Source of the DNA: Thermoleophilia bacterium
GTDB taxonomy: Bacteria; Actinomycetota; Thermoleophilia; BMS3ABIN01
DNA: 64,000 nucleotides
Assembly: GCA_020053595.1 (NCBI GenBank)
Contig: JAGVMV010000024.1
Coordinates: forward strand, 29,707 to 93,706
Direction of reading: 5' to 3'
Shown here: one piece after another, positions 5,955-33,893 of the stretch
Numbering within the stretch: position 1 is the first letter of the stretch
How the letters are laid out: each line of letters begins with the position of its first letter
The notes under the pieces: model-generated
What the model was told of the DNA's origin: nothing
Database searches by the model: none
Seen by the model: only the letters and a program-made list of their open reading frames with translations
Made by a program: the position numbers and the translations under genes

Positions 5955-6100
5955 TGTTTTTAAATGGAAGCTTAAATGGGGCAAGTCCGGTGCAAGTCCG
6001 GCGCAGTCCCGCTACTGTAAGTGAGAACGGTGTTCAGGTCCGGCATTTGTCGACCGTACCCGTCTCTCACAAGCCAGAAAACCCGCCCCTGACCAGGATT
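5955..6100 (+). ncRNA. Cobalamin (adenosylcobalamin) riboswitch
   Basis: GGAAGC...GGTGCAAGTCCGGCGCAGTCCCGCTACTGTAAGTGAG core. Downstream B12-box-like AAGCCAGAAAACCCGCC. It sits in the 5' leader of the cbiM cobalt transporter gene. Confidence 0.75.
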
Positions 6101-6227
6101 CCGAGAACCTTCGCGAGAAAGGGGCAGGATTATGATGGCATTTCCATAGATAACCCTTTGTCCAGCTTCCAGGATGAAGGTTTTTTTCATTTTTCAGCAA
6201 TTATCTGAATCGCAGAAAGGATGCTCC

Positions 6228-6887
6228 ATGCACATTCCTGAAGGACTGATTCCCGCGCAGCAGGCGGTAGTCTGGTACGCGCCGGCGATGGCTTTTCTGG
6301 GCGCCGGGCTGATCGGACTCAAGCGTCATCTGGCCGCAATACCATCATCGCGCCCCCTGGTCGGCCTGATGGGCGCCTTTGTATTCGTAATATCGCTCAT
6401 GCCGATTCCGGTCCCGGGCCTGGGGACGGTTTCCCACCCCTGCGGCACCCCCATGGCGGCCATCCTGTTGGGGCCGCTTACGGCTGCAGTGCTGGGATCG
6501 GTGGCGCTGCTGCTGCAGGCGCTTTTCTTTGCCCATGGCGGCATCACCAGCTGGGGCGCCAACATCATGTCGATGGCCGTGGGCGGTTCGTTCGCTGGCT
6601 TCGCGGTCTTCAAGATCTCCCGTCGCGCCGGGCTCGGCCTCGGGATATCGGCCGGGATGGCCGGCTTCGTCGGTGATCTGGTCACTTACGGCCTGACTTC
6701 GCTCCAGATCGCCCTGGCGCTGCATGGGGATGAGCCGGCGCCGTATGTCTGGGGGGCGGCTTTTGTCTCATTTATGCCGACCCAGGTGCCGCTGGCGATC
6801 GCCGAAGCGCTGTTTACCGCCGGCGTGGTGGTCTTCATCGCTAACGAGCGCGCCGAGATCCTCGAAGGCGCGGTGGTGCGGCCATGA
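6228..6887 (+). CDS. cbiM: Cobalt ECF transporter substrate-specific component CbiM. The ATG at 6228 is preferred over the upstream ORF start at 6174.
   Basis: MHIPEGLIP start typical of CbiM, preceded by an AAAGGA RBS. Multi-TM protein. Confidence 0.85.
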   Translation: MHIPEGLIPAQQAVVWYAPAMAFLGAGLIGLKRHLAAIPSSRPLVGLMGAFVFVISLMPIPVPGLGTVSHPCGTPMAAILLGPLTAAVLGSVALLLQALFFAHGGITSWGANIMSMAVGGSFAGFAVFKISRRAGLGLGISAGMAGFVGDLVTYGLTSLQIALALHGDEPAPYVWGAAFVSFMPTQVPLAIAEALFTAGVVVFIANERAEILEGAVVRP

Positions 6888-7156
6888 AGCGCTGGATGAT
6901 AGTTCTGGCAGTAGTAGCGGTTTTTCTGACCGCTGTGCTTTTCACAGAATCACAATGGGAAGGGGATGTCACCGAAGGGGCCGCAGCACCTCTGGCGGAG
7001 AAGGCGGGTGTTGAGGAATCCCAGGTCCTTCCCTGGAAGATAGACGGCGACCTGCTGCTCTTCTTCTTTCTCTCCGGCGGCGCCGCCGCTGGCTTTGCCG
7101 CTGGGTATTACTGGAGGACGCTGTTTTCTGAAAGCGGCAGGAAGGAAATGGCTTAG
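6884..7156 (+). CDS. cbiN: Cobalt transport protein CbiN
   Basis: 90-aa protein with two TM helices. Its position between cbiM and cbiQ is diagnostic. Confidence 0.75.
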   Translation: MKRWMIVLAVVAVFLTAVLFTESQWEGDVTEGAAAPLAEKAGVEESQVLPWKIDGDLLLFFFLSGGAAAGFAAGYYWRTLFSESGRKEMA

Positions 7157-7230
7157 ATGATACAAGTGTCGCCAGATGATACAGGGACGCGCCACGGCGC
7201 GTCCCTGTGGAACTTTCCAGGGGAACCCAG

Positions 7231-7998
7231 ATGACCGGAACGTCGCACAGTGGTGACAGCTACGCCTGGGGAGACAGCTTTCTCTCCCGCATCGATCCCA
7301 GGGTGAAAATCGCCGGATTCGCAGGACTGCTGATGGTTAATCTGGTTGGAGCTTCATACCTTGTGTCAGGGTTGATAGCTCTCGCCATGGTCCTGTTGAT
7401 GATCGCCGGACGCATTCCCTACCGCCGGCAACTGCTAATGATCGCTTTCCCCTCGACTTTCGCCTTGTTTGCCATAATTTCACAAACCGTGTTTAAAGGG
7501 GGAGAGGTATTCGTCGCGCTGGGTCCGTTCGACTTGCACCTTGACGGGCTCTTTCACGGCCTCTATCTCTCCCTGCGAATCGTCGCCGGGGGCCTGATTG
7601 TCGTCGTCCTGGGGGTGACGACACCGCTCAACCGGCTCTGTCTGGCCCTCAGATGGTTCAAAGCTCCGGCTACCTTTATTGAGGTAATGCAATTGACTTA
7701 CCGGTATCTATTCGACATACACGCGGAATTTTCAAGGATGCGAGAGGCGCAACGCTCGCGGCTCGGCTGGTCCTCGGCGCGCTCCGGTTTGGCGAGCAGC
7801 CGCATGCTGGGCGGTTCCCTTTTTCTGCGGGTCTACGAACGTGGCCTGCGGTCCTCGGAAGCGATGCGCTGCCGTGGCTCGGGGCCGGTGGTAAACGGCG
7901 CGCTGCCCCGTCCCGGCCGGCTGGATATTCTCGCCGGGCTGGCCGTCGCGGCGTTTCTCAGCGCCTTGAGCCTGCTGGCCCTGGGAGGCCCGGCGTGA
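7231..7998 (+). CDS. cbiQ: ECF transporter transmembrane (T) component CbiQ. The ATG at 7231 follows an AGGGGA RBS; the ORF track starts at GTG 7207.
   Basis: IDPRVKI motif and multi-TM profile of the CbiQ/EcfT family. Confidence 0.8.
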   Translation: MTGTSHSGDSYAWGDSFLSRIDPRVKIAGFAGLLMVNLVGASYLVSGLIALAMVLLMIAGRIPYRRQLLMIAFPSTFALFAIISQTVFKGGEVFVALGPFDLHLDGLFHGLYLSLRIVAGGLIVVVLGVTTPLNRLCLALRWFKAPATFIEVMQLTYRYLFDIHAEFSRMREAQRSRLGWSSARSGLASSRMLGGSLFLRVYERGLRSSEAMRCRGSGPVVNGALPRPGRLDILAGLAVAAFLSALSLLALGGPA

Positions 7999-8858: not shown

Positions 8859-10024
8859 GCCGGGAGCCGCAAATCGGGAATCAGGATTCGGGGAAGATCG
8901 GCCGGGAGCCGGGCAAAGACAGCCGTCAAGGAGTTTCAGGGAAGCGTGCGCCGCGCCGCGGTTATACCACCGGCGCCTGCGCCCAGGCGGCGACAAGGGC
9001 GGCGGCGCTGACCGTCGCCATCGGCTACCCGCCCTGCAATCCGGAGGCCGAGGAAGATACAAACATCGTTTGTGATACCAGGGGCCTGGTCGATGTGACT
9101 CTGCCCAATGGCGAGAACGCGATCTTCCCGATGACCATGCATGACGAGGGTGTGGTGTCCGTCGTCAAGGACGCGGGCGACGACCCGGACGTTACTAACG
9201 GGATTCAGATTTTTGTCTGCGTTGTCGGGCGGCTTGATGGACAGTTTTATGTGGATGGCGCCGAAGGCGTGGGCCGGGTGACGCTGGAGGGGCTGCCGGT
9301 GAAGCCGGGAGAAGCGGCCATCAACCCGGTGCCCCTGAAGTTCATCATCAAGGAGGCGAAGCGTGTACTGCCGCTGGGCGCAGAGGTCACGATTTCCATC
9401 CCGGAAGGTGAGGAGCTGGCGTCCAGGACATTCAATCCGAAACTTGGCATCATCGGCGGTCTCAGCGTCCTGGGAACGACCGGGCGGGTTGAGCCCTGGT
9501 CTTCGGCGGCCTACCAGGAATCATTGTTGCCGCAGCTGGACGTGGCCAGGGCAGCCGGTGTGAAACGGCCGGTACTGGTGCCTGGCGCCAAGGGTGAGAG
9601 GGCGGCGCTGGCGGCGGGGTTCAAGCCGCTGGCGGTGGTGCAGACGGGAAATTTTACCGGCATGATGCTGGCGGCGGCGCGGGAGCGTGGCATGCTGCAG
9701 GTAGTCATTCTGGGCCACGCCGCCAAGGTAGCCAAGCTGGCGCGAGGCGATTTCAACACCCATTCGCGGCGTTCGCCGATGCCCCTCGATGTGCTGGCTG
9801 AATGCGCCGAGGCGGCGGGATGGAAGAGCAGCCGGGCGCGGGAACTCCTGCTACTGCCGACGACCGAGGCGGCGCTTGCGAGGCTCAGGGAAGCGGGTGC
9901 GGAGGGCGCCCTGGTTCTGGAAGAGACGGCCCGGCGCGTTGCCGCGCGCGTCAGCGATGAATACGGCATCACGGCCGAGGTGATCCTGACCGACGGGCGG
10001 GGGAAAATCGTCGGTCGAGCATAA
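8855..10024 (+). CDS. cbiD: Cobalt-precorrin-5B (C1)-methyltransferase CbiD
   Basis: RRGYTTGACAQAATRAAAL N-terminal motif characteristic of CbiD. Good GGAGGAGG RBS. Confidence 0.85.
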   Translation: MSREPQIGNQDSGKIGREPGKDSRQGVSGKRAPRRGYTTGACAQAATRAAALTVAIGYPPCNPEAEEDTNIVCDTRGLVDVTLPNGENAIFPMTMHDEGVVSVVKDAGDDPDVTNGIQIFVCVVGRLDGQFYVDGAEGVGRVTLEGLPVKPGEAAINPVPLKFIIKEAKRVLPLGAEVTISIPEGEELASRTFNPKLGIIGGLSVLGTTGRVEPWSSAAYQESLLPQLDVARAAGVKRPVLVPGAKGERAALAAGFKPLAVVQTGNFTGMMLAAARERGMLQVVILGHAAKVAKLARGDFNTHSRRSPMPLDVLAECAEAAGWKSSRARELLLLPTTEAALARLREAGAEGALVLEETARRVAARVSDEYGITAEVILTDGRGKIVGRA

Positions 10025-28311: not shown

Positions 28312-28764
28312 ATGAATCCTGATATTCCTCCAAGAACCCTGGTGCTGGACACCAGCGTCGTCGCCAAGTGGTTTCTGCCTGAGCCGCTCAGCACGGAAGC
28401 GGATAGCGTTCTCGAGGAAGTTCGTCTGGGAAAGACACAAGTGGCTTCACCGGATCTGATCGTTTATGAGTTAGCCAATATCCTCTGGCAACGCCAGAAG
28501 AAGGAAGAGATCAGCGGCAGGCAGGCCGCCGCGATCATGTCGGATTTCGAGCGTCTTCCAATTCAGCTGGTCCCGGGAGATGTCCTCGGGTCTCAAGCAC
28601 TGAAAATCGCGGGAAGGACGGGCTGCACTGCTTATGACGGAGCATTCATGGCATTGGCGTCCGGCCTCAATTGCACCCTGATTACCGCGGACCAGAGATT
28701 TATCAGTCTGATGACCGGCACAAGATTCGCAAAGCGGGTTGTGTGGCTGGGTGAGTGGAAATAA
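28312..28764 (+). CDS. vapC: PIN-domain toxin VapC
   Basis: LVLDTSVV start and the conserved acidic residues of the PIN fold. Paired with the upstream RHH antitoxin. Confidence 0.8.
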   Translation: MNPDIPPRTLVLDTSVVAKWFLPEPLSTEADSVLEEVRLGKTQVASPDLIVYELANILWQRQKKEEISGRQAAAIMSDFERLPIQLVPGDVLGSQALKIAGRTGCTAYDGAFMALASGLNCTLITADQRFISLMTGTRFAKRVVWLGEWK

Positions 28765-28834
28765 TCGCCTGTCTTTCCGGCCTGATAGCATGATCATGCA
28801 AGCCTGATAGAATAGTTTCCATGAAAGGACCTGC

Positions 28835-29059
28835 ATGCAAATGAGGGACATCAAACCCCGCCCCAACCATGCGAAGTACGTACAGATTCTGCGCGGGCTG
28901 ACCCCGGAGGAGCGCCTTTTCAAGGCTTTTGAAATCTCGGCGTTCTCCAGGGATCTCTTCATGTCCGGCCTTCGGAAAAGATTCCCCGACTTAACTGAAG
29001 CTGACAGAAAAGAAATCTACCTGAGGCGACTGGAAAAATGTCACAACAGGAATTACTAG
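28835..29059 (+). CDS. Small (74 aa) helical protein, candidate partner of the downstream nucleotidyltransferase
   Basis: AAAGGA RBS. Overlaps the downstream gene by 22 nt (translational coupling). C-terminal R-x4-H motif (RLEKCH) resembles a HEPN signature. Confidence 0.4.
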   Translation: MQMRDIKPRPNHAKYVQILRGLTPEERLFKAFEISAFSRDLFMSGLRKRFPDLTEADRKEIYLRRLEKCHNRNY

Positions 29060-29538
29060 CAAAGGTAGTTTCGGCTCTCAACCATGCGGGCATCGACTAT
29101 ATGGTGACCGGCTCCCTGGTTTCGAGTCTTCAGGGCGAGCCACGCTCAACCCACGACATTGATTTCGTCGTATCGGCAGGGCCGGAGATTGTCGGGGCGC
29201 TCGTCGAAGTATTCCCCCCTCCTGATTACTATCTTGACAGAAAAAGCATTACGGAAGCGGTCAGCAGGCAGGATATGTTCAACCTGATCGATGTGAAATC
29301 CGGTGATAAGGCTGATTTCTGGATCTTAACGGATGAACCGTTCGACCGGTCCCGCTTTGCTAGAAAATATGAAGAGAACGTGCTGGGTATGAAACTCAAG
29401 GTTTCCAGTCCCGAGGACACGATTCTCGCCAAGTTGAGATGGGCCGCGCTGTCCGGAGGAAGTGAAAAACAGTTCATTGACGCCTTGCGGGTCTATGAGG
29501 TGCAATCTGGCAAACTGGACATGGAGTACCTTTCGTAG
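29038..29538 (+). CDS. Minimal nucleotidyltransferase (pol-beta superfamily) protein
   Basis: TGSLVSSLQGEPRSTHDIDFVV fits the GS-x(9-13)-DxD NTase motif. Confidence 0.55.
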   Translation: MSQQELLAKVVSALNHAGIDYMVTGSLVSSLQGEPRSTHDIDFVVSAGPEIVGALVEVFPPPDYYLDRKSITEAVSRQDMFNLIDVKSGDKADFWILTDEPFDRSRFARKYEENVLGMKLKVSSPEDTILAKLRWAALSGGSEKQFIDALRVYEVQSGKLDMEYLS

Positions 29539-29633
29539 AGCACCCAGGGATTCTTAACTCTTCTGACGTAAGACGGCTGTCTTTGAATCTTGCATACAGG
29601 TACGTGCTGGTCCTTCTTGACGGTAGCAGTTGC

Positions 29634-29822
29634 TTACTTGGCCGGTGGAACTCCGAGGTCTCTGCAGATTTTCTTCGCCAGGATATCCTGAATCTCTCGA
29701 TGCCTGGGAATCGCTGAACGTTTGTTTAAGTCCGGGTTGTGCCACCAGGAATGTCTACCGCCTTCTCTTAATTGCTCGCATCCGTTTGCTATTAAGTGCC
29801 GGATCAGTGCATCCCTTTTCAT
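29634..29822 (-). CDS. hicA: HicA-family mRNA interferase toxin
   Basis: 62-aa protein ALIRHLIANGCEQLREGGRHSWWHNP... typical of HicA (YcfA-like). Confidence 0.8.
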   Translation of the reverse strand: MKRDALIRHLIANGCEQLREGGRHSWWHNPDLNKRSAIPRHREIQDILAKKICRDLGVPPAK

Positions 29823-30031
29823 ACAGCAATCTGTTCTTCTTCGTAATCCTCTCCGGCTGCGGACACGGCATCCTGGCGATTAAAATCAAGCGCTTCTTTC
29901 AACGCCTCTTTCAAACTTTCAACCAATTCGGGTCTCGTCGACTCCTGGCAGTTCACACCGGGAACTTCTTCCATCCACCCTATCCACCAGCTCTCCGTTT
30001 TTTTGATTACAGCAGTATATTGGTTATCCAT
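29819..30031 (-). CDS. hicB: HicB-like antitoxin (UPF0150 family)
   Basis: YTAVIKKTESWWIGWMEEVPGVNCQESTRPELVESLKEAL matches the UPF0150/HicB N-terminal domain. Overlaps hicA by 4 nt. Confidence 0.7.
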   Translation of the reverse strand: MDNQYTAVIKKTESWWIGWMEEVPGVNCQESTRPELVESLKEALKEALDFNRQDAVSAAGEDYEEEQIAV

Positions 30032-30267
30032 GATGTTTTCCTCGCTTCATCCGGGATTGATGCCTCTAATAAACCTCATGATTATTAATTCTAAAGAGAT
30101 TAATCACTTTTGGCTATAGAGATTGATGCAATTCCCCCTCATAAATCTCCTTGCGGGTCTTATCCCTCAGCATCACGAAGTCTTGGTCAAAAGGCGGAGA
30201 GACAACCGACGACAACCTTGAAACCAAGTGCAAACAATGCAACCTTGGCAAGGGAAACGCATTTAAT

Positions 30268-30595
<328 letters not shown>

Positions 30596-30603
30596 GGCTG
30601 GCG

Positions 30604-30657
30604 GATGCGGTTCAAGATCGACGAGAACCTTCCCGAAGACGTGGCATCGGTCCAATA
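30604..30657 (+). pseudogene. Truncated DUF5615 (PIN-like, partner of DUF433) gene remnant
   Basis: MRFKIDENLPEDVASVQ-stop. Only the first 17 codons of the usual ~110-aa DUF5615 toxin remain. Confidence 0.5.
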
Positions 30658-30659
30658 GA

Positions 30660-30749
30660 GCTGCGCCCGATGAAATAAAAAAGCTTGTCGAACTGGGTGT
30701 TATAAAGCAAAAGGGGAGTGGACGGAGTACCCAATACGAACTGGCGTAG
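30660..30749 (+). pseudogene. C-terminal fragment of a RecG-like/AAA-HTH (AlbA_2/HATPase_c_4 family) protein
   Basis: ...PDEIKKLVELGVIKQKGSGRSTQYELA-stop resembles the conserved C-terminal wHTH tail of that family. No N-terminal part is present. Confidence 0.35.
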
Positions 30750-30773
30750 CCGTTCACGATTAAGTTCACGAAT

Positions 30774-31048
30774 AGGTTCACGAATAATGACTCCGGACTC
30801 ACCAAACGCGCCAGTTGTCACACTTTCCGCCACTCATTTGCCACGCATCTGCTCGAAAACGGCTACGACATCCGCACCATCCAGGAACTGCTGGGACACA
30901 AGGACATAAAATTACCATGATTTATACCCATGTACTCAATCAGGGTGGGCAAGGCGTCCAGAGTCCAATTGACAAGTTGCCTCGGCGATGGACGATTAAC
31001 CGGATCAATCTAAACCGCCAGCTTAGAACCTGTTCTTCCTGCAATTGT
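30774..31048 (+). pseudogene. intI: Integron-type tyrosine recombinase (IntI/XerD-like) gene: C-terminal ~55-codon fragment, frameshifted
   Basis: ...[36 protein letters not shown], then a frameshift, then [22 protein letters not shown] in the other frame. This is the hallmark C-terminal catalytic region with the Tyr box of integron integrases. No N-terminal 300 codons are present. Confidence 0.7.
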
Positions 31049-31130
31049 TGGAATATTGTGTGAAGGGATAGGGGTTTATACTGCAGAATATTCAGTGTTG
31101 GGGGTTGTTATATGGATACGTATAAACACT

Positions 31131-31137
31131 GTTAGGC
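31131..31137 (+). other. GTTAGGC core recombination site (R'-type) forming the 5' boundary of the exonuclease cassette
   Basis: Exact GTTRRRY consensus, preceded by a 7-bp stem CAGTGTT/AACACTG. It lies 32 bp upstream of the cassette ORF. Confidence 0.5.
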
Positions 31138-31168
31138 ACTTTGTCAGACCAGCTTCCGAGGTAGAGCA

Positions 31169-32440
31169 ATGTCACGGTCCCTGATCGCAGGTCCCATAGG
31201 CGTGATCGACGTGGAGACGACGGGGTTGTTCCCGTCCCGGCATGATCGCGTGGTAGAGGTGGCTGCCGTTGTTGTGGGAGCTGACGGGCGCATTGAACGC
31301 GAGTTCGTATCGCTGGTGAACCCAGCTCGGGACATCGGGCCGAGCAGCATCCACGGTTTGACCTCGGAAGATATTCTCCACGCGCCGCAGTTTGCAGAGA
31401 TCGCAGCACTACTATTGGACGTGCTGAGTGGCACGGTGGCGATAGCCGCTCACAACGTTCGATTCGACCGCCAGTTCTTGGAGAGCGAATTCTCACGGCT
31501 GGAGTGCCAGTTACCGGACTGTTTCAGCATTTGCACAATGCAGCTGGCGGGGGGCGGGAGACTAGCGGACTGTTGTCGTGACTATGGAATCTCACCAGAA
31601 GGCGATGCTCATCACGCCCTCGCCGATACTCATGCCGCTGCTCTGCTACTGACCTGCCTTCTCGCCGACCAGCCTCGCACGGTTCAGAAGCTCAGCAAAC
31701 TTGCGCCGGTTCAGTGGCCGACCGTTCCCCGCACGATGAAGCAACCCGTCACGCGCGATGAGTCACGCCGTCGCCAAACTGAACCGCCCACATTCTTGCA
31801 GTATCTTCTCGAACGAATGCATGGTCACGGATTTCCGGACGCCACCGACGGGGCGGTTATGGCTTACGTGGCGTTGCTTGATCGCTTCCTGGAAGATCGT
31901 CATGTGGACGACTCTGAAGCCGATGCACTCGTGGAAACGGCTACAAAATGGGGCCTGAGCGGGGACCAGATATCCCTTGCCCACCGTGACTATCTGAATC
32001 AATTGGCAATTGCTGCAGTAGCCGACGGAATCGTCACGGACGCGGAACGACGGGACCTGAAGCTTGTCGCGCACCTGCTGGGCCAGGAGAAACGCGACTT
32101 GGACGAGATACTCAGTGAAGCTGCTGCGAAGGTGTGCGAGACACATCCCGATCCGGCCACGGCCAAACCCGCCGAGGAGAGCCTGATCGGGATGCGCGTT
32201 TGTTTCACAGGGGAGCTACAGTGCCATCATGACGGAGAGATGATTTCGCGCGAGTTGGCCGAAGAGCTCGCCAGTAGAGCCGGGCTTGTTGTGGCGGACT
32301 CTGTCACCAAGAAGCTCGATCTTCTTGTATTGGCCGACCCGCACACACAGTCTGGAAAGGCCAAAAAGGCCCGGCAGTATGGCATTCGGATCATGCACGA
32401 GCCCGTGTTCTGGAAGGCTATCGGCGTGAATGTGGAATGA
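31169..32440 (+). CDS. Cassette-encoded DEDDh 3'-5' exonuclease (DnaQ-like) fused to a TerB-like helical domain and a C-terminal BRCT domain
   Basis: Exo I IDVETTG, Exo II AHNVRFDRQFL, Exo III HHALADTHAAAL. The central helical region is TerB-like by composition. C-terminal GMRVCFTGEL...LLVLADP...SGKAKKARQYGIRIM is BRCT-like. Confidence 0.8.
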   Translation: MSRSLIAGPIGVIDVETTGLFPSRHDRVVEVAAVVVGADGRIEREFVSLVNPARDIGPSSIHGLTSEDILHAPQFAEIAALLLDVLSGTVAIAAHNVRFDRQFLESEFSRLECQLPDCFSICTMQLAGGGRLADCCRDYGISPEGDAHHALADTHAAALLLTCLLADQPRTVQKLSKLAPVQWPTVPRTMKQPVTRDESRRRQTEPPTFLQYLLERMHGHGFPDATDGAVMAYVALLDRFLEDRHVDDSEADALVETATKWGLSGDQISLAHRDYLNQLAIAAVADGIVTDAERRDLKLVAHLLGQEKRDLDEILSEAAAKVCETHPDPATAKPAEESLIGMRVCFTGELQCHHDGEMISRELAEELASRAGLVVADSVTKKLDLLVLADPHTQSGKAKKARQYGIRIMHEPVFWKAIGVNVE

Positions 32441-32472
32441 GCGAGAATCATGCCGCAGGGTGATGTCGCCGT

Positions 32473-32570
32473 GCCTAACAAAACGCTCACCTGCCGCGGC
32501 CCGCATTGCGTTCCTCGGGGTTCGACACCCCCTTGCACCGGGCCGCGGCAGGTGAGCGCCAACGTTAGGC
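32473..32570 (+). other. attC recombination site (98 bp): R'' GCCTAAC, imperfect inverted repeats L''/L', R' GTTAGGC
   Basis: GCCTAAC-AAAACGCTCACCTGCCGCGGCCCG ... CGGGCCGCGGCAGGTGAGCGCCAAC-GTTAGGC. One extrahelical base asymmetry between the arms. Located 33 bp after the cassette ORF stop. Confidence 0.7.
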
Positions 32571-32650
32571 AGTAGGCCCAGTGGTTTTATGGAGCCGAGG
32601 ATTTGGTTGGGGGTTGTTGTGGGTTTAAGTTGCAAAAACGGGAGGTCATC

Positions 32651-33647
32651 GATGAAGAAAAAATTCCTATCGATCGGACAGATCCTAGCCCTGGGTGCGT
32701 TTCTGATCGTCTATATCGGGGTAGTGGCTGGGTGTGGCGGAACTACCGAGGAAAGCGGAGGATCGGCTTCTCGAAGCGACGAGGCCACGCTGGTCGCCAT
32801 GACGGAATCCGGCAGCCATCAGAATCCCGCCTGGTCCCCCGACGGTTCGGCACTCCTCTTCACCCGTTGGCGAAGCGGTTACAATACGGGTGCAGCCGAC
32901 CTCTTCGTCGTTACCCTCGCCGATCTCGCCCTCAGGACGCTCGTCTCGGACGGAAGCGCCAACGTGAATCTTCCGGGATCGGCATCGACCTGGAACGGAA
33001 CGACCGACGAAATCGTTTTCACCTCCTCGCGTGACCCCCACGACGAGGCCTACGTGATCGGTGAAAACGGCGCCAGAGGTTCGGCGACGCAGGTGACATC
33101 TCGTCCCAACCACGTAGTCTTCGAAGCGTCCCTTTCCCCGGACGCTCAATCGATCGTCTTCGAATCGCATCAGGTCGACGTGGAGGACAACGGCGTCATC
33201 TTCCGTTACAAAAGAGACGGGAGCGAGGGCTATGTGCCCTTGACGCCCGCCGGCATGGACTGCCGTCAACCGGTCTGGTCCCCCACCAGAGATAAGATCG
33301 TTTGCCAGTGCAAGGTAGGCGGTCAATTCGCGGTCTTTGTGATGAAGACCGACGGGGCCACCCTGACACAAGTCACGGGCGGAGCAGGTGAGATGACGGA
33401 CCCATCTTTCTCCCCTGACGGCTTGATGGTCGTCTACAGCTCGAACGAAGGAGGACTTGCTCAGGCCAATCTTTTTGTCGTTCCCGTGACAGGTGGACAC
33501 TCGACACGGGTAACCAACTATTCCGGCTACGATGGCGCACCCTCATGGTCTCCGGATGGAACGAAGATCGCTTTCGAGTCCTCACCGAGTGATCCCGACG
33601 GGTCCGCGGGGACTAAGCTTTACATCATCGCCGCACTGTCTCCCTAG
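32651..33647 (+). CDS. TolB-like WD40/PD40 beta-propeller lipoprotein (cassette 2). The ATG at 32651 follows a GGGAGG RBS.
   Basis: Signal peptide with lipobox VVAG-C. Repeated ...PAWSPDGS..., ...SLSPDAQSIVF..., ...PSFSPDGLMVVY..., ...APSWSPDGTKIAF... PD40 repeats. Confidence 0.7.
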
Positions 33648-33785
33648 ACGAGCCCCATGGCCGGCCACGACCGTATAAAGTCCCCGTGCAGACAAAGGGG
33701 TCAGCGCTTTACTTTATATTTATTGCCAGTAGTGTCCGGTTAGGGAACGGTGTCAGACTTGCCTAAGTTGTCCAACAATGCACTG

Positions 33786-33848
33786 GAGCCGACCGTATGA
33801 TATCTGCGCATTTTAGCGTTGCCCTGCGGTCGGCGGCTCAGTTTTTTC
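33786..33848 (+). terminator. Hairpin plus T-tract: terminator of the cassette region, or a leader attenuator of trpS
   Basis: Stem GAGCCGACCG / CGGTCGG(CG)GCTC with a long loop, followed by GTTTTTTC. It lies ~45 bp upstream of the trpS start. Confidence 0.35.
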
Positions 33849-33893
33849 ATTAGATCGCGTGCTTTTCCCGCCCCCTTCCGATAAAATCCAGCC

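Follow-up and report, generated by a model that had tools for sequence, protein, structure and literature searches.

A gene for a 423-amino-acid (aa) protein that joins a DnaQ-like DEDDh 3'-5' exonuclease domain, a helical TerB-like domain and a C-terminal BRCT domain is the first, attI-proximal, promoterless cassette of a sedentary chromosomal integron with a decayed integrase in a Thermoleophilia bacterium (Actinomycetota). It lies at 31169-32440 of a 64,000-nucleotide (nt) stretch of DNA, here called the window (assembly GCA_020053595.1, contig JAGVMV010000024.1, positions 29,707-93,706), and coordinates below are those of the window unless a compared contig is named. The gene is a further member, in a new genetic vehicle, of PDC-S48, a catalogued and uncharacterised family of candidate defence proteins. 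From its motifs we read the product as a metal-dependent 3'-5' DNA exonuclease. The role that we favour, tentatively and with slightly less than even confidence, is that of a portable single-protein effector of anti-phage or anti-plasmid defence, directed at nicks or 3' ends.

The cassette and the integron parts that flank it are the following:

30819..30991, + strand, intI remnant made up of the final ~58 codons, frameshifted by 1 nt near 30908 (TIGR02249; tblastn pieces 30819-30911 and 30908-30991)
31027..31137, + strand, attI-like site with its core GTTAGGC at 31131-31137 (comparison with sister genomes)
31132..32564, + strand, gene cassette of 1433 bp, beginning with TTAGGC behind the attI crossover and ending at the G of the R' box in attC
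31169..32440, + strand, PDC-S48-family open reading frame (ORF) encoding the DEDDh exonuclease, TerB-like and BRCT domains, 423 aa (Pfam, NCBIfam, PADLOC)
32473..32570, + strand, attC of 98 nt with the boxes R'' (GCCTAAC) and R' (GTTAGGC) at its ends; between them a perfect stem of 20 bp, set off by an unpaired spacer of 4/5 nt, carries a variable loop

A preliminary description, made from the DNA letters alone, had taken the gene for a mobile cassette bounded by a GTTAGGC core site and an attC, and comparison with other genomes bears this out. Repaired by one base, the 58-aa peptide encoded upstream finds its best match in the integron integrase model TIGR02249 (E = 7.5e-31, positions 262-315 of 315), a better match than those to XerC/XerD. 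The remnant reads toward attI and the cassette, an 'inverted' layout, and in L015 and L010 this cassette is likewise preceded by an intI remnant of like orientation, with the cassette again first after the remnant in L015 (L### and P#### are our labels for compared loci or contigs and for family proteins, respectively). The attI region is 84% identical to positions 6559-6669 of L090, from a sister Thermoleophilia metagenome-assembled genome (MAG); the similarity ends exactly after GTTAGGC, beyond which L090 has a TIR-domain cassette in place of the exonuclease cassette. A second sister contig, L093, carries a related attI (GTTATCTGGAACCGTATAAACATTGTTGGGC) ahead of a different array. There is no hairpin upstream of the core, so the site at 31027-31137 is not an attC, and the crossover would fall between G31131 and T31132. 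The 5' junction (G/TTAGGC-ACTTTGTCAG, the slash marking the cassette boundary) is kept in other loci with the same gene. The cassette start TTAGGCACTTTGTCAG is found in the window, L003, L010, L011, L012, L015 and L037, each time behind unrelated upstream DNA, and the cassette's 3' untranslated region (GCGAGAnnCAnGCC...GTGCCTAACAAAACGCT) is conserved in L004, L010, L011 and L015; no fewer than eight unrelated loci have these cassette junctions. The recurrence of the junction elsewhere, together with the divergence of the sister genomes right after GTTAGGC, proves the boundaries.

Folded as single-stranded DNA, the attC reaches -41 to -43 kcal/mol, a stability that none of 200 shuffled sequences attained (z -6.2 and -7.4), and its structure is common to five attCs of this cassette family, with compensatory changes in 10 of 33 pairs. 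The stem itself is perfect; the spacers are asymmetric (AAAA vs CCAAC), which is compatible with bottom-strand polarity set by extrahelical bases. A strict motif scan of the window returned one attC, while a relaxed ViennaRNA scan produced too many false positives in this GC-rich DNA to serve for counting. That the cassette's appearance is a coincidence of a chance GTTAGGC and a terminator-like hairpin would agree with a GTTAGGC count in the window no higher than chance (4 seen vs 4.6 expected) and with the absence of cassette hallmarks from most family members, but the comparative data refute it: an intI remnant lies upstream, the attI is common to the sister genomes up to the core and then followed by differing cassettes, the junctions recur in unrelated loci, the attC structure is kept through compensatory change, and a full attC array occupies the same locus in L093.

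Within the cassette, a GAGG (31158-31161) sits 7 nt ahead of the ATG. A promoter and terminator scan of 30600-32700, of a kind ill-suited to Actinomycetota, returned nothing, and GC content does not mark the cassette as foreign. An exact-sequence look-up of the 423-aa protein found no record of an identical sequence. The integron resembles the 'inverted' Treponema-type integrons (PMC3607928, PMC4889954), in which intI is likewise read toward attI and the cassettes and an attC-bounded array lies downstream; it differs in that its intI is frameshifted and reduced to only ~58 codons, and in its actinomycetotal host. With the integrase reduced to a non-functional remnant, the lineage has lost the means to reshuffle its array with an integrase of its own. 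As side observations, the intI remnant in L090 is even shorter than that in the window, and L090 holds within its array (8916-9092) a second attI-like copy, 71% identical, which may be a duplicated or recombined attI. A 350-aa gene upstream of attI in L093 was considered as an integrase and rejected, as it is not one.

The protein is divided into three domains:

31196..31696, + strand, DnaQ-like DEDDh 3'-5' exonuclease domain, ~residues 10-176 (Pfam RNase_T, motifs, Foldseek)
31754..32140, + strand, helical TerB-like middle domain, ~residues 196-324 (family profile; D-x6-E motifs D243/E250 and D286/E293)
32189..32425, + strand, C-terminal LigA-type BRCT domain, ~residues 341-419 (Pfam, NCBIfam TIGR00575)

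An AlphaFold2 model built on an alignment of 86 relatives (mean predicted local distance difference score, pLDDT, 93.9; predicted template-modelling score, pTM, 0.90) indicates a single compact three-domain body. The exonuclease domain is complete, as had been proposed, and includes the histidine of the DEDDh subclass. Pfam RNase_T (PF00929) matches residues 12-160 (E = 2.9e-19, 70.6 bits vs a cut-off of 24), and the residues of ExoI (D14, E16), ExoII (H95, N96, D100) and ExoIII (H148-x4-D153) are invariant or nearly so across the 86 aligned relatives. In Foldseek searches the modelled domain superposes on the Escherichia coli DNA polymerase III (Pol III) epsilon structures 2gui and 1j53 with a target-normalised TM-score of 0.80 and a root-mean-square deviation of 2.3-2.4; other matches of the N-terminal domain are the exonuclease domains of PolC and DinG, RNase T and TREX, and searches with the full-length model gave matches limited to the exonuclease domain. 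The PADLOC model of a CAS-associated DEDDh exonuclease also matches (E = 4.9e-29). Fold and catalytic motifs are thus shared with E. coli Pol III epsilon (DnaQ) and with the Cas2-DnaQ DEDDh exonucleases, whereas the window protein lacks the theta- and alpha-binding tail, has no cas genes nearby and carries other C-terminal domains. Its substrate would be DNA, at the 3' ends of nicks or gaps.

For the middle of the protein a TerB-like domain had been suggested, and this stood at the level of the family but not for the window protein by itself. In the latter, Pfam TerB (PF05099) matches residues 275-313 partially (profile positions 77-115 of 118) and below threshold (18.0 bits vs 24.4, E = 0.0037), and Foldseek with the middle-domain model gave no significant match. 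Among the 86 relatives, Pfam TerB matches 42 (best E = 3.4e-6) and DUF533 matches 5, and a profile of residues 186-338 matches Protein Data Bank (PDB) entry 2ou3, a 'Tellurite resistance protein of COG3793' of the TerB family (E = 4.3e-6). Residues R196, Y233, D243, E250, H272, D286 and E293 are invariant or nearly so. On profile evidence the domain is therefore called TerB-like, a class assignment confirmed only at family level. Shango, Bunzi and Dionysus, all validated defence systems, contain TerB domains (10.1101/2025.09.30.679545).

The proposed C-terminal BRCT domain was recovered directly, with Pfam BRCT (PF00533) matching residues 357-411 at 25.5 bits (gathering score 21.3; profile positions 17-71 of 78) and matching 69 of the 86 relatives. 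The C-terminus of the NCBIfam LigA model TIGR00575 (positions 557-650 of 652) aligns with residues 313-412 (E = 5.7e-9), and this profile is the sole basis for calling the domain LigA-type; in pairwise BLASTP the BRCT and a neighbouring LigA gave no significant match, and the window protein is without the adenylation and OB domains of LigA. Residues T347-G348, R361 and S395-x-K397 are invariant or nearly so in the same alignment, and from what is known of the BRCTs of BRCA1, RFC1 and LigA we take them to be the phosphate-binding pocket (S/T-G and K). BRCTs of the LigA and RFC1 type target nicks and ends with a 5' phosphate. By inspection only, no clamp-binding motif is evident at the C-terminal end of the protein (...HEPVFWKAIGVNVE).

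The PADLOC model of PDC-S48 (PDLC05027) matches the protein over its full length (E = 2.3e-120, 400 bits, residues 12-419, profile positions 8-406 of 411), and the PADLOC family is likewise a single gene with the same length and three-domain layout. The PDCs are 145 untested candidates that were predicted from their embedding in BREX, DISARM or type I restriction-modification loci (10.1101/2024.01.29.577857), and PDC-S48 is one of these candidates only. Literature searches for PDC-S48, for TerB, BRCT and exonuclease combined, and for DEDDh with BRCT found nothing on this family, including its integron-cassette form, its linkage to ligA and its fusions to Shango and Hhe proteins. The family is large: at E<=1e-30 it counts 946 representatives of clusters drawn at 50% identity, and nearly all of the top 150 cluster representatives are full length (400-445 aa). 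For the nearest 120 clusters, identity to the window protein is 67-93% and length mostly 411-433 aa, a few being shortened or N-terminally extended (356-523 aa). Their source MAGs bear the labels Dongiaceae, Chloroflexota, Betaproteobacteria, Sedimentisphaerales and Thermoanaerobaculia. Relatives in this identity range, ~423 aa long, span Alpha- and Betaproteobacteria, Chloroflexota, Planctomycetota and Acidobacteriota in addition to this Actinomycetota host. A contig search with the single protein as query yielded 6 loci. Cassette hallmarks are confined to relatives at least ~55% identical to the window protein, members at 37-50% identity being ordinary genes, and most family members are not cassettes. 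No full-length homologue was found in the phage collection, the family being essentially absent from phage records, and one plasmid homologue was found among 72,556 plasmids. For this reason we dropped the reading as a plasmid-borne function, and with it the counter-defence role that the preliminary description had offered as an option.

Some relatives carry the module as part of larger proteins. In L065 (112-5254), a single 1254-aa ORF comprises a complete Shango SngC (E = 5e-277) and the whole exonuclease/TerB-like/BRCT module, directly after SngB (E = 9e-181); the locus ends upstream, where SngA could lie. The SngC fusion recurs in P0126 and P0249, making three in total, all of them in distant relatives of the window protein only. 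In P0245 the module is fused to an Hhe/PDC-S37 helicase-restriction endonuclease, in P0212 it is joined to a HIRAN domain, in P0171 to a LigA-like tail of HhH and BRCT, and in P0196, P0208 and P0210 a second BRCT is added. HIRAN domains bind 3'-OH DNA ends. The catalytic residues are kept in all aligned fusions (L065, P0126, P0249, P0245, P0212 and P0171), and the residues typical of the TerB-like and BRCT domains are kept nearly throughout, two single substitutions being the exceptions. Shango consists of the TerB protein SngA, the ATPase SngB and the helicase SngC; the window protein has in common with it a TerB-type domain and, through its relatives, the fusion of the whole module to SngC, but it is encoded by a single gene, and a Pfam scan of ten flanking ORFs showed nothing resembling SngB or SngC. 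Its nuclease and BRCT are not among the domains listed for Shango, which are TerB, ATPase and helicase (10.1101/2025.09.30.679545).

A second recurrent context is the gene for NAD-dependent DNA ligase, ligA, which lies within 202 nt of the homologue in 11 of 79 informative loci (L005, L013, L020, L024, L027, L028, L029, L034, L055, L060 and L064). This adjacency was seen in no fewer than four clades and takes three forms (upstream, downstream and convergent), and one of the contexts is a core smc-zipA-ligA-exo-galU arrangement. LigA and the family are alike also in their BRCTs, as described above, and some family members have HhH2 with BRCT. The exonuclease tree is incongruent with those of LigA and of the hosts: the exonucleases of L005 and L013 are 81% identical while their LigA proteins are 62% identical, and the exonucleases of the window and L005 are 82% identical across phyla; the exonuclease is not simply co-inherited with LigA. 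Separately, in L024 (7403-7615) and L027 (5449-5637) small stand-alone BRCT ORFs follow ligA, with the exonuclease gene before it, which suggests that the BRCT module of LigA has been duplicated or shuffled. On the 154-kb contig of L003, a fossil cassette (5960-7300) that has kept the 5' junction GTTAGGC and lost its attC lies 4.3 kb from ligA.

The segment of the window that varies among sister genomes extends over 31138-33855, given that homology to L090 and L093 returns only at 33856, 38 nt before the start codon of trpS. It consists of the exonuclease cassette and of one further gene:

32571..33855, + strand, rest of the variable segment, with a PD40/TolB-like beta-propeller lipoprotein gene at 32589-33647 (PD40 repeats)

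No attC-like hairpin was recognised in 33648-33855, and the lipoprotein gene is possibly a second cassette with a decayed attC. The host is an uncultured actinomycetotal bacterium whose TrpS is 90% identical to that of a Thermoleophilia MAG. In this Thermoleophilia-like lineage of Actinomycetota the segment upstream of trpS is a hypervariable integron array (31138-33855 in the window, 6670-9962 in L090 and 1898-9962 in L093). The L093 array has ~15 small genes on the + strand with attC-like sites between them that end in GTTAGGC or GTTGGGT, and that of L090 has TIR, PhD/ParE and further cassettes. Taken together, the sister arrays at this locus hold TIR, Fic and toxin-antitoxin cassettes, and toxin-antitoxin genes are common around the cassette forms of the family.

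The preliminary description had expected either a repair accessory or a defence effector, rather than a replicative proofreader, and it is between these first two that most of our weight falls; the homologues are not uniformly core DnaQ paralogues. In the reading that we favour, the LigA-type BRCT would bring the enzyme to nicks or recessed ends with a 5' phosphate, the TerB-like domain, with its two D-x6-E acidic pairs, would serve as a ligand- or metal-binding regulatory module or as a partner-docking one, and the enzyme would enlarge nicks or cut back 3' ends of invading or replicating foreign DNA, in competition with sealing by ligase. The same module would be plugged into the helicase systems Shango and Hhe as their nuclease/TerB part. 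A defence role is suggested by the PDC-S48 match, the SngC and Hhe fusions, the occurrence of TerB in validated systems, the spread across phyla, the neighbouring TIR, Fic and toxin-antitoxin cassettes, and the conservation of the active-site and BRCT residues. Several points weigh on the other side. Clear defence genes stand within two ORFs on either side in only ~3 of the 56 loci scanned, the SngA models do not match the window protein, and PDC-S48 is a family of candidates. Sequence is highly conserved and length does not vary, unlike in many fast-evolving immune genes. The adjacency to ligA points to nick metabolism or repair, and the substrate could even be RNA, one source naming a relative a 3'-5' exoribonuclease. 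Finally, the sole characterised protein that combines an exonuclease with a BRCT, mycobacterial DnaQ, is a replication-fidelity factor (PMC11348249).

The alternative that survives best, which we regard as somewhat unlikely, is that the protein is an accessory of DNA repair or maintenance that works with LigA, a nick-editing exonuclease that would trim mismatched or damaged 3' termini before fill-in and sealing, the integron having spread a useful repair gene. The repeated and differently arranged linkage to ligA, including the core smc-zipA-ligA-exo-galU context, speaks for it, as do the LigA-like BRCT, the members with an additional HhH and BRCT tail or with tandem BRCTs, and the strong conservation. 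By experiment, mycobacterial DnaQ is an accessory proofreader whose BRCT is essential and is thought to mediate protein contacts, so that a BRCT-dependent role in fidelity has a precedent (PMC11348249). A repair accessory fits less well with the patchy distribution of the gene and its incongruence with the LigA tree, with the fusion of the module to defence helicases, with the match to a PADLOC candidate and with a cassette that sits beside TIR and toxin-antitoxin cassettes. We also know of no role of a TerB-like domain in nick repair, which we count against this alternative.

The favoured defence reading has a more specific form, which we consider unlikely: the module would be a self-contained nick-sensing immune effector, the nuclease-bearing counterpart of the TerB subunit of Shango, turning nicks or 3' ends of invading DNA into unligatable gaps in direct competition with LigA, and the cassette would spread this immunity across phyla. 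Competition with LigA would explain why the gene is often kept beside ligA.

It is improbable that the protein is a horizontally acquired, replisome-associated proofreader like mycobacterial DnaQ of the Rv3711c/MSMEG type, with which it shares an N-terminal DEDDh exonuclease and a C-terminal BRCT. Its top NCBIfam match is indeed NF004719/PRK06063, an actinobacterial family of DEDDh exonuclease with BRCT (E = 3e-49, in two stretches), its host is an actinomycetotal one, and its exonuclease fold is nearest to Pol III epsilon. The score of 167.7 bits is nevertheless far below the equivalog cut-off of 389 for NF004719, and those for the Pol III epsilon models TIGR01406 (75.9 vs 222.7) and NF004316 (64.4 vs 196) also fall far under theirs. 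The ~130-residue TerB-like insert is absent from the NF004719 family, the clamp-binding tail is not evident, the gene is mobile and not core, and replisome subunits specific to one lineage are unlikely docking partners for the product of a cassette that crosses phyla. More improbable still is an RNA-directed exonuclease of the RNase T or oligoribonuclease type, with a role in RNA processing or decay. The Pfam RNase_T and Rv2179c-like models match, RNase T structures are among the fold matches, and the naming of a relative as a 3'-5' exoribonuclease comes from an NCBI record; yet the match to the Rv2179c-like model (a 3'-5' exoribonuclease) is under the gathering score in the window protein, the top structure and sequence matches are DNA proofreading exonucleases, and the partners and contexts are all related to DNA (LigA-type BRCT, HhH, HIRAN, DNA helicases and ligA).

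Upstream of the integron, and just before the intI remnant, lies a patch of low GC content (28312-30749, 0.47-0.53) with genes of toxin-antitoxin type and fragments of genes. Pfam assigns 28312-28764 to a PIN gene and 29038-29538 to a gene for a DUF2204 nucleotidyltransferase. By eye only, we noted HicA/HicB-like ORFs on the - strand (29634-30031), a DUF433-like ORF (30335-30595) followed by a truncated partner, and a Fic-like C-terminal fragment (30561-30749). Immediately ahead of the DUF433 gene, 30268-30330 has GCCTAAC, a short GC hairpin (GGACGCGCTTACGCGCGCC) and an end near GGTAGCC; it could be a degenerate orphan attC, with a folding no better than that of shuffles (z ~-1).

The locus adds to the recent view of integrons as stockpiles of defence genes, and it documents an integron with an inverted, decayed intI in Actinomycetota, a phylum in which Cury et al. 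(2016) found no complete integron. The most useful new leads are the Shango and Hhe fusions, which suggest working partners of the module, and the linkage to ligA, which points to nicks as its substrate. TerB domains recur in phage defence by Shango, Bunzi and Dionysus, and PDC-S48 is among many untested candidates; in this setting the compact, highly conserved single-gene form of 423 residues gives residues that can be tested, namely D14/E16 in the exonuclease, T347/K397 in the BRCT, and D243/E250 and D286/E293 in the TerB-like domain. Were the repair alternative true, the gene would encode a mobile nick-editing enzyme associated with ligase, and this too would be biology not seen before. If instead the protein is a nick-sensing effector, it would provide a concrete mechanism for Shango and other TerB systems, as well as a widespread defence made of one protein.

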